Assembly: GCA_910584305.1 (NCBI GenBank)
Contig: CAJTZW010000004.1
Coordinates: 45,967-109,966, forward strand
Reading direction: 5' to 3'
DNA: 64,000 nucleotides
Origin: an uncultured Bacilli bacterium
GTDB taxonomy: Bacteria; Bacillota_I; Bacilli_A; RF39; UBA660
The position numbers and the translations under genes are program-made. The notes beneath the pieces are model-generated. The model was given only the letters and a program-made list of their open reading frames with translations, searched no databases and was not told the DNA's origin. This document shows positions 25,964 through 27,097 of the stretch, piece after piece. Within the stretch, counting starts at the first letter, position 1. Each line of letters starts with the position of its first letter.

Positions 25964-27097
25964 ATGCAATCAAGAAATTCAAATGATATAAAATTAAGTT
26001 ATAAACAATATTCTGATAAAATGGGATATATATATCATGACAGTATTCCAATTGTAGCTTCAGAGAAATCAAGATTGTTATTTAATATATCTGGTGGGGT
26101 TCGTTATCAAGAAGAACTATTAGAACAAAAACGTGCTGAGGAAGAACAGGTTTCATCAATTCAAAAATGTGTGAGAACAGATAGTATTGATAGCGTTGGA
26201 ATATCTGGTAGACATCATATATGTTTTGAGATGTTAGGTCATTTTATGTTTTATTCACATAATGAAAAAGAGACAAAAGAAAACTTTATTGAATTTGCAT
26301 ATAATTTTTTAGTACGTGAGTTAGAATTAGGGCGTAATCGAATTTTTGCTACTGTGCATCCCAATGATGAAGTTACATTAAGAGTTTGGAATAAATTAGA
26401 AAATAAAAATATCATTACAAATGATAAGAATATTTTTATTTCTCCTTATGCTGAAAAAAGTGCTTTAAGAACAGAAATATTATGGCAAAGAACTGATGAA
26501 TCATTGGTTGAGTTATGGAATCTTGTATTCACTCAGTTTAATAGCAGTAAATTATTTGAAAATCCTAGTTTAACGGTTGGTGCAGATTCAGGGGCTAGTT
26601 TAGAGAGAATAGTAAGTGCATACGAAAATAAAGATAATAACTATGAAAATTCAATGTGGGTGGATTATGTAAAATATATCAGTGAATTAGGGAATAAAGA
26701 TGATATATATATATTGAGGAAAATTGCTGATTTAATGAATGCTATTGTTAATTTAATTCAAGAGGGACTAATTCCAGGTAATAAAGTTCAACCATATATG
26801 TTAAGAAAAATGATGCGAAATACTTTTGATTTATGTGATGATTTATGTATTGATGTTAATCAGTTATTGAGTTATATAACAACTGATGAAAGTGTTCAAT
26901 TAATTTTTGAAGATGAAAAAAATAAGTATGATAAAAGTATTGTTAACGGATTAAAACAGGCAGAAAAATTAATAAATAAACTTGGTATAGAAAATATTGA
27001 TATTAATTATTTAAAATCAACTTGTGGACTTTCTAATAGATATATTAACATTTTATTATCGTCATCTTATGAAAAAACAAAAGTAAAAAAACAATAA
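25964..27097 (+). CDS. Stand-alone alanyl-tRNA synthetase catalytic-domain paralogue (class II AlaRS N-terminal fragment-like)
   Basis: [33 protein letters not shown] aligns with AlaRS motif 2 (SQRCVRAGG...[20 protein letters not shown]). Only 377 aa, so no editing or C-Ala domains. RBS aaaggagg. Confidence 0.7.
   Translation: [377 protein letters not shown]

Follow-up and report, generated by a model that had tools for sequence, protein, structure and literature searches.

What does an alanyl-tRNA synthetase (AlaRS) that has been cut down to its N-terminal part do at the end of an operon of non-translation enzymes? This question is raised by a gene for an AlaRS-like protein, designated AlaL1, in a stretch of 64,000 nucleotides from an uncultured Bacilli bacterium (assembly GCA_910584305.1, contig CAJTZW010000004.1, positions 45,967 to 109,966 of the forward strand), which is referred to below as the window. 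AlaL1 is encoded by the last gene of a close-packed five-gene operon of about 6 kb (Table 1), where it follows a short Rel/SpoT homologue, a fusion of a nucleotidyltransferase (NTase)-like domain, X, with an aldo-keto reductase (AKR), a radical-SAM enzyme (rSAM) and a serine peptidase of family S66. The operon suggests a new pathway to an alanine-nucleotide compound belonging to a kind which poisons tRNA synthetases. In this pathway, to which we give a probability of about 0.45, AlaL1 would alanylate a nucleoside-like acceptor built by rSAM, AKR and the NTase-like domain, the product would mimic alanyl-adenylate (Ala-AMP), and the peptidase would serve self-immunity.

AlaL1 was matched by Pfam tRNA-synt_2c (E=7.9e-45, profile positions 5-376 of 552) and by no other Pfam domain. 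Against the NCBIfam alaS model TIGR00344 it scored 157 bits over positions 3-381 of 847, the cut-off being 457. The small-AlaRS class, whose members consist of catalytic, tRNA-latch and editing domains in about 590 amino acids (aa) and score above 529 bits, is described by the profile NF002436/PRK01584; here AlaL1 reached 72 bits, below the threshold of 529. Its closest solved relatives are AlaRS catalytic fragments from Aquifex (E=8e-32) and E. coli (E=1.5e-21). An AlphaFold2 model built on 90 homologues had a mean pLDDT of 94.9, and the best 27 Foldseek matches of this model were all AlaRS, the top ones being N-terminal fragments (1riq in first place with TMq 0.81; 3hxu, TMq 0.77). AlaL1 can be aligned to E. 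coli AlaRS from residue 1 to ~420, LYDTYGFP pairing with LKSTCGLS. The protein is an aminoacylation domain with most of the tRNA-recognition domain, without an editing or a C-Ala domain. A first-pass annotation made from the sequence had described it as a catalytic core; this core is present, but the description understated a protein in which the tRNA-recognition domain is mostly kept. Relative to E. coli AlaRS, three internal deletions were identified, which remove the GGKH portion of the motif-2 loop, the QMGDTGPCGPC segment together with W170, and the DHGDHIWGGPPGSPEEDGD insertion.

Motifs 1-3 and the residues of the alanine and ATP site, including the motif-3 arginine, could be aligned with E. 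coli AlaRS, as is characteristic of class IIc. The residues R71 (R69 in E. coli), H84, H85, F88, M90, G92, E171, E183 and W185 do not vary in any of the 90 family members, and the same holds for N186 (N212), V188 (V214), D208 (D235), G210 (G237) and R215. Their roles in alanine and ATP binding were assigned from structural work on the E. coli and Aquifex enzymes. The motif quoted in the first-pass annotation corresponds to residues 65-96, and the three alanine-binding positions that it had singled out, R69, D235 and G237 of the E. coli enzyme, are thus conserved throughout the family. Since the active-site residues are invariant in all 90 members, the catalytic pocket is, to judge from the alignment, under strict selection, and it should still bind alanine and an adenosine nucleotide. 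Three further invariant residues, H93 (Asn in AlaRS), R169 and S209, are peculiar to the AlaL1 family. Binding of RNA by AlaL1 appears plausible. No variation was seen at the helix residues Y278, R281 and R285, and for the pair reading G3:U70, taken as N303 and D400 of E. coli AlaRS as defined in PMC10036535, the N303 equivalent (N273 in AlaL1) is kept in 77/90 members, while the D400 equivalent is Ser in 75/90 and Asp or Glu in 10/90.

A word-indexed search identified 92 AlaL1 homologues, all of 232-397 aa and none with an editing domain, and an exhaustive HMMER scan of 1.84 billion representative proteins gave 38 AlaL1 matches at E<=1e-30. In the HMMER ranking, the short family was on top and ordinary AlaRSs of 750-900 aa were found below it. 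The longer proteins among these representatives that could be aligned with the whole of AlaL1 were considered as fusions and rejected, being ordinary AlaRSs. In a neighbour-joining tree, AlaL1 was monophyletic in 50/50 bootstraps; canonical AlaRS, small-AlaRS and a second mini-AlaRS, the latter in two clades, were all placed outside it. An AlaL1-seeded scan of 185,579 species genomes identified 21 loci, and every genome match was a metagenome-assembled genome. The hosts are uncultured Clostridia, Bacilli and Erysipelotrichaceae from gut and rumen among the Firmicutes, and members of the Candidate Phyla Radiation (CPR)/Patescibacteria, including Nomura-, Buchanan-, Uhr- and Yonath-bacteria, Saccharibacteria and Paceibacterota, so that the spread is sporadic and crosses phyla. 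Homologues of the operon proteins carry database labels such as "hypothetical protein", "alanine--tRNA ligase-related protein" and "DNA repair photolyase", and no prior description of the AlaL1 family or of its gene combination was found in the searchable literature, which was covered incompletely.

The first-pass annotation had proposed a stand-alone AlaRS-derived paralogue, and neither the housekeeping enzyme nor a broken alaS. This proposal is borne out by the ~90 homologues of 340-397 aa without an editing domain, by the monophyly of the family apart from canonical AlaRS in all 50 bootstrap trees, and by related loci which encode a second AlaRS beside the AlaL1-type gene, a full-length one of 895 aa in the case of L083. 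It had also been considered that the remaining alaS domains might lie downstream in another frame. However, a tblastn search of the window with full-length E. coli AlaRS matched only positions 25970-26824, and no other piece of alaS and no editing or C-Ala coding sequence was identified downstream of AlaL1 or elsewhere in the 64 kb. A pseudogene or alaS fragment was ruled out on these grounds, together with the conserved length of the homologues and the invariant active site; the strong Shine-Dalgarno sequence and the packing of the operon also speak against decay. For the standard AlaRS of a lineage, the family is too rare in both scans, and related loci have other AlaRS genes besides it. Both readings, a decayed fragment and the sole, minimal housekeeping AlaRS of the organism, are therefore essentially excluded, with one caveat concerning the host: the search for another alaS covers the window, and a second alaS in the genome is unconfirmed.

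The S66 protein encoded directly upstream of AlaL1 is of the MccF type. Among solved structures, it is nearest to MccF-like proteins (B. anthracis BA_5613, Lmo1638 and E. coli MccF, at 1e-36 to 1e-27), whereas LdcA enzymes were matched far more weakly (1e-14 to 1e-10). The translation contains the motifs GFSD, GH (as FGH) and LEE, which we take to represent the Ser-His-Glu triad. For rSAM, the Pfam and NCBIfam matches are weak and of the spore photoproduct lyase (SPL)/COG1533 type; 257 homologues were identified. In addition to the cysteines of its CxxxCxxC motif, C301, C323, C328 and C336 are invariant in 80/80 homologues, and these four may hold an auxiliary iron-sulfur cluster. The AlphaFold2 model of rSAM (pLDDT 91.8) has no near structural neighbour in the PDB and matched only generic radical-SAM cores there, like those of pyruvate formate-lyase activating enzyme and HydE (TMq <=0.41), so that the fold yields no substrate clue, and a profile search against PDB sequences gave nothing meaningful. 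In the X-AKR fusion, X comprises about residues 1-250 with G-S...D-x-D...DD motifs. It weakly matches DUF4037, NTP_transf_2 and Polbeta, and a profile search against PDB sequences again gave nothing meaningful. The AKR domain covers about residues 255-493 and has the D/Y/K/H tetrad.

The same set of rSAM, AKR and NTase-like genes recurs across the loci compared (95, of which 77 are non-redundant), which were taken from contigs encoding AlaL1 homologues, from the AlaL1-seeded scan of species genomes and from an rSAM-seeded metagenome scan. The Firmicute type has the order [Rel]-[AlaL2]-X~AKR-rSAM-S66-AlaL1, and in every locus of this type the S66 gene adjoins AlaL1. The CPR type contains AlaL2, AKR, rSAM, AlaL1, X and an S51 peptidase in several orders and orientations, with X and AKR as separate genes; the peptidase accordingly varies between S66 (MccF-like) in the Firmicute type and S51 (the MccG family) in the CPR type. 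Among the 18 AlaL1-seeded loci in which an rSAM gene is present and flanked on both sides by 3 kb or more, AKR was present in 17, X in 15, AlaL2 in 10 and S51 or S66 in all 18. This gene linkage was kept despite rearrangement and across phyla, a point in favour of the proposed pathway. Fusions cover all three pairings of X, AKR and rSAM, with X-AKR in the window and in other Firmicute loci, and the AKR-rSAM and rSAM-X proteins listed in Table 1; because of these pairwise fusions, the three are considered to act as one unit. No further conserved family was identified in the cluster comparisons among open reading frames (ORFs) of at least 90-100 aa.

AlaL2, a mini-AlaRS of near-canonical type, originates from small-AlaRS, to which its identity is about 50%; the AlaL2 of L010 scored 469 bits against the small-AlaRS profile over positions 5-448. 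Its slot is filled by a 590-aa small-AlaRS in L089 and by the full-length AlaRS in L083, and the tblastn search of the window revealed no second AlaRS copy in the operon. In CPR representatives of AlaL2, like the one of L007, GPCGPC and DTGxGLER are kept, and motif 2 reads SYHGTNFRMMGSWSFGDYF where a near-universal motif is expected; this change may be a signature of inhibitor resistance. Also in L007, which sits among aminoacyl-tRNA synthetase (aaRS) genes, a gene for a NUDIX hydrolase adjoins the S51 gene. The same arrangement is present in L094, which is the same cluster recovered twice, and was not seen in the other loci compared.

The aaRS-like component itself can be exchanged. In the rSAM-seeded metagenome loci (n=19), class-I LysRS-like genes (PF01921) were identified in 10 and AlaL1 in 6. 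In the Lys-type clusters (L031/L032, L038, L041-L048, L053, L058, L071, L076 and L090/L091), LysRS-like genes, sometimes in two copies, take the place of the AlaRS-like ones beside rSAM, AKR, X and S51. L032 encodes a LysRS-like protein fused to a metallophosphoesterase domain (Metallophos; 772 aa) and a second copy of 527 aa, and the second LysRS-like copy of L090 bears a tRNA_bind domain. At the other end of the range are loci that look like decayed clusters in which the S66-AlaL1 pair was retained: L005/L014 consists of S66 and AlaL1 alone, in L011 the pair is preceded by a 146-aa C-terminal stub of rSAM, and in L016 AlaL1 is split into two ORFs.

The pathway to an Ala-AMP mimic was proposed because a constant set of rSAM, AKR and X is combined with an exchangeable aaRS-like enzyme, often an extra, more canonical copy of the same aaRS, and an S66 or S51 peptidase, and because aaRS-like precedents exist in AcmF, AcmD and AcmE of the ascamycin pathway and in SbzA of the SB-203208 pathway. 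As a unit, rSAM, AKR and X would build or modify a nucleoside- or nucleotide-like acceptor. AlaL1, the pocket of which is intact for alanine and an adenosine nucleotide, would then couple L-alanine to this acceptor, either directly through Ala-AMP or from Ala-tRNA(Ala), as AcmF does. Ala-tRNA could be supplied by the housekeeping AlaRS in this genome and by the co-encoded AlaL2 in relatives. The product would resemble alanyl-adenylate and so belong to a class of molecules which inhibit aminoacyl-tRNA synthetases, and AlaL1 might at the same time be a drug-insensitive AlaRS, as SbzA is for IleRS. On family precedent, the cytoplasmic MccF-type peptidase would hydrolyse the alanyl-nucleotide bond for self-immunity or turnover, a role taken by the S51/MccG-type peptidase in the CPR relatives. 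The peptidase swap supports this proposal, since MccF (S66) and MccG (S51) are exactly the families shown to cleave the aminoacyl-nucleotide bond. The exchange of Ala- and Lys-type enzymes on the constant rSAM/AKR/X set is what would be expected of a fixed warhead with a variable amino acid. The sporadic cross-phylum spread and the decayed remnant loci fit an accessory, conflict-type trait.

Several points weigh against such a pathway. AlaL1 retains all adenylation residues, unlike AcmF, so that the analogy to a transferase is incomplete. The NTase-like character of X is weak, and the first catalytic Asp is missing in the CPR copies, while rSAM was found by PDB sequence and fold searches to lack a close relative of known chemistry. 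No conserved exporter, regulator or precursor peptide was seen in the compared clusters. CPR bacteria, the genomes of which are very small, commonly have the cluster, and antibiotic production by such hosts is not an obvious expectation. The loci with S66 and AlaL1 only (L005/L014, L011) fit a role in resistance better than one in biosynthesis. Peptidases of families S66 and S51 serve unrelated housekeeping functions as well, and product, substrate and activity of the operon are predictions from sequence.

The main rival holds that AlaL1 is a minimal but true AlaRS, which would charge tRNA(Ala) and escape inhibition by an antibiotic that mimics alanyl-adenylate, thus providing target-replacement resistance beside the MccF-type hydrolase; the compound would be made by another enzyme, or by the sensitive AlaRS itself. 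Such a role by itself is rather unlikely in our estimate, although it agrees with the invariance of all adenylation residues, with the largely kept tRNA-recognition domain, including the N303 equivalent and the residues Y278, R281 and R285, and with the remnant loci, which retain exactly S66 and AlaL1. AcmD and SbzA are precedents, and an inhibitor could be kept out by the family-specific changes near the nucleotide-binding site (GPCGPC loop and W170 missing, H93 in place of Asn, the new invariant R169). Natural mini-AlaRSs without editing domain, C-Ala or N/D pair are, moreover, fully active (PMC10036535). However, a resistant AlaRS would be redundant where a more canonical extra AlaRS is present (AlaL2, or its substitutes in L089 and L083), the D400 equivalent is Ser in most members, and the operon of the window would be left without another candidate for attaching alanine. 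AlaL1 also ends at E. coli residue ~420, short of residue 461, up to which an E. coli AlaRS fragment reportedly has to extend for charging according to deletion work of the Schimmel laboratory. Ligase and resistance copy, the two roles guessed in the first-pass annotation, are the leading readings here as well.

The operon might instead modify a macromolecule of translation, either a tRNA (in one of its nucleosides or at the acceptor end) or a protein, for example elongation factor P (EF-P), to which AlaL1 would attach alanine. GluQRS glutamylates queuosine, and EpmA/EpmB, a LysRS paralogue with a radical-SAM enzyme, lysylate EF-P, so that a truncated aaRS paralogue with a radical-SAM partner has a precedent. 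The acceptor-stem-binding domain kept in AlaL1, the adjoining TGS-containing short Rel, the position of L007 among aaRS genes, the absence of an exporter and the reduced genomes of the hosts would all suit this function. It is nevertheless clearly unlikely, since no conserved target gene for a protein or RNA was found in or beside the clusters, the Ala/Lys swap on one rSAM/AKR/X set is hard to square with a single target, the steady MccF/MccG-type peptidase would have no obvious role, and the distribution is sporadic. Less probable still is an endogenous throttle of translation, in which a Rel-linked, hydrolysable mimic of alanyl-adenylate (of lysyl-adenylate in the Lys-type clusters), or else a tRNA or nucleotide that has been alanylated, would reversibly stop the cell's own AlaRS or LysRS, with the MccF/MccG-type peptidase as off-switch; bacteria with reduced genomes would thus have a counterpart of toxin-antitoxin or stringent control that is directed at an aaRS and acts through a small molecule. 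Cell-envelope metabolism, with an LD-carboxypeptidase trimming muropeptides and the AlaRS-like enzyme supplying activated alanine (lysine in variants) for bridges or aminoacyl-lipids, is very improbable. The S66 family does include LdcA, and alanine and lysine are common in peptidoglycan cross-bridges. They are also the two amino acids of aminoacyl-phosphatidylglycerol (PMC2922099). However, the S66 protein is much nearer to the MccF type, a Fem/MurM or MprF-type transferase was identified in none of the compared clusters, the S51 substitution in CPR loci is unfit for muropeptide trimming, and no role would be left for rSAM, AKR and NTase.

The borders of the operon could be placed with some probability. 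The short Rel, probably the first gene, was matched by TIGR00691 at positions 1-448 of 687 and thus lacks the regulatory region at the C-terminus. The overlap of the Rel gene with the start of X-AKR is 14 nt, and the gap between S66 and AlaL1 is 11 nt. A Rel gene was also found next to the cluster in L010, L015, L029 and L044, of which three are Firmicute loci and one is a CPR Lys-type locus. The hairpin downstream of AlaL1 is the probable terminator of the operon; it was not listed by a consensus terminator scan, having too few G-C pairs. No Rfam family reached its gathering threshold anywhere in the window, and in 27050-27750 none was matched even at E<=1; no tRNA was identified in the window by ARAGORN; there is therefore no dedicated tRNA, T-box or riboswitch linked to the operon. 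PADLOC matched no defence system, with Rel alone giving a weak match (PDC-S33, E=3e-6) and the other five proteins none. A scaffold-peptide route, of the type known for peptide aminoacyl-tRNA ligases (PEARL) and ribosomally synthesized and post-translationally modified peptides (RiPP), was considered and rejected, since the genes of the operon directly adjoin one another and the short ORFs of 27098-27682 resemble A+T-rich noise. The next gene, for an AMP-binding ligase, lies beyond a 585-bp A+T-rich spacer and has its own perfect promoter. It is not conserved beside the cluster in other loci, and it is followed by genes for a hybrid histidine kinase, an Hpt protein and a second hybrid kinase.

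Table 1. Features of the AlaL1 operon and its surroundings (positions in the window), and features of other loci (positions in the locus named)
Feature	Position	Strand	Remarks
Short Rel/SpoT homologue	20874..22358	+	HD, RelA_SpoT and TGS domains only; 480-494 aa depending on start codon
NTase-like domain X + AKR fusion	22345..23826	+	Pfam Aldo_ket_red
rSAM	23839..25044	+	401 aa; CxxxCxxC C54/C58/C61; 12-nt gap after X-AKR
S66 serine peptidase, MccF type	25041..25952	+	303 aa; Pfam S66 and S66C; 4-nt overlap with rSAM stop
Shine-Dalgarno sequence AGGAGG	25953..25958	+	Directly after S66 stop codon, 5 nt before AlaL1 ATG; read from sequence
AlaL1	25964..27097	+	ATG start, 377 aa, intact ORF; mini AlaRS-like
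Hairpin AAGACTCTTG...CAGGAGTCTT, then T run (probable terminator)	27345..27383	+	RNA fold; about 250 nt past AlaL1 stop
Promoter of AMP-binding ligase	27623-27650		Perfect TTGACA-16-TATAAT
AMP-binding (acyl/aminoacyl-adenylate-forming) ligase	27683-29485	+	600 aa; next gene past the operon
rSAM-X fusion	L039 7938-9929	+	663 aa; Rosetta-stone link
AKR-rSAM fusion	L089 4303-6126	+	607 aa; Rosetta-stone link
AlaL2, CPR type	L007 6586-7878	-	430 aa
NUDIX hydrolase	L007 12531-12998	-	Adjoins S51 gene

AcmF, reportedly described by Zheng et al. in ACS Catal in 2024, is to our knowledge the sole AlaRS-derived enzyme known outside translation. If the pathway to an Ala-AMP mimic is correct, AlaL1 would be a second kind of such an enzyme, mechanistically distinct by its full adenylation machinery, and the first from uncultured gut Firmicutes and CPR bacteria. 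The operon represents a type of cluster that is new as far as the literature could be searched, in which rSAM, reductase and NTase-like proteins are combined with interchangeable AlaRS- or class-I LysRS-like enzymes and with interchangeable MccF or MccG peptidases, and if its proposed logic holds, the products would form a new family of aaRS inhibitors of the aminoacyl-nucleotide type, for which the choice of target is built into the cluster. The kind of system is rated as known, namely that of aaRS-derived enzymes in clusters for aaRS-inhibitor-type metabolites, and the AlaL1 family and its cluster as undescribed. This bears on antibiotic discovery by resistance-gene-guided genome mining, on the repurposing of synthetases in aaRS evolution, and on the biology of CPR bacteria, their hosts and gut communities.

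Among the known systems, the closest precedent for the AlaL1 operon is ascamycin biosynthesis in Streptomyces sp. 80H647. Here, the truncated AlaRS-like AcmF alanylates a nucleoside sulfamate with Ala-tRNA(Ala) as donor, the Ala-tRNA is made by AcmD, an additional AlaRS that is resistant, and the alanine is removed by the hydrolase AcmE (PMC12945691). Like AlaL1, AcmF is cut down to the aminoacylation and tRNA-recognition domains. Its neighbour AcmD would correspond to the AlaL2 of relatives (10/18 loci, the window not included), the de-alanylating AcmE to the S66 or S51 peptidase (18/18 AlaL1 loci), and ascamycin is an alanyl-adenylate mimic, as proposed for the product here. However, AcmF has lost residues for the activation of alanine with ATP (N219Q, D232E), whereas AlaL1 keeps all of them, with N186 and D208, at the positions of E. 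coli N212 and D235 where AcmF has Q and E, invariant. AcmE has an alpha/beta fold and is secreted, and the peptidase of the AlaL1 loci is of family S66 or S51 and cytoplasmic. Instead of a sulfamate pathway, of which no genes were identified among the annotated neighbours of AlaL1 loci, there are rSAM, AKR and NTase-like genes. The hosts also differ, Streptomyces on one side and uncultured Firmicutes and CPR bacteria on the other, and the operon of the window has no counterpart of AcmD.

In the SB-203208 pathway, the IleRS-like SbzA installs the isoleucyl group and confers resistance (PMC12945691). This is again an extra aaRS within a cluster, which combines self-resistance with transfer of the cognate aminoacyl group onto an adenylate-mimicking warhead. 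By analogy, SbzA shows that such logic can work with different aaRS classes, as it would in the Ala and Lys versions described here. Unlike AlaL1, SbzA is a full-size class I enzyme, the warhead is a sulfonamide, and the rSAM/AKR/NTase set is absent.

For the peptidases, the precedent is microcin C immunity, where MccF (S66) and MccG (S51) cleave the aminoacyl-nucleotide carboxamide bond and detoxify aaRS inhibitors (PMC9239234). The S66 protein of the operon is closest to MccF structures, and the CPR clusters carry an S51 peptidase as MccG; an alanyl or lysyl specificity is predicted for these enzymes by analogy. The route to the nucleotide differs, since microcin C is an aspartyl-nucleotide made by the ThiF-like MccB on a ribosomal peptide, and neither MccA nor MccB is present in the AlaL1 operon.

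In its domain content, AlaL1 resembles the mini-AlaRS of Tupanvirus, which consists of catalytic and tRNA-recognition domains only and is active without the N/D identity pair (PMC10036535). Both proteins lack an editing domain as well as C-Ala. The E. coli AlaRS fragment N461 is, with 461 aa, longer than AlaL1. AlaL1 differs from the mini-AlaRSs and small-AlaRS by the loss of the GPCGPC segment and W170 and by forming its own clade, it scores far under the curated AlaRS cut-offs, and it is operon-linked to non-translation enzymes. EpmA/EpmB and GluQRS, finally, originate from other aaRS families; rSAM is no lysine aminomutase, and the AlaL1 clusters have no linked target gene and always a peptidase. 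What they share with AlaL1 is the principle of a truncated aaRS paralogue which has kept activation and serves a non-canonical acceptor, in the case of EpmA together with a radical-SAM partner.

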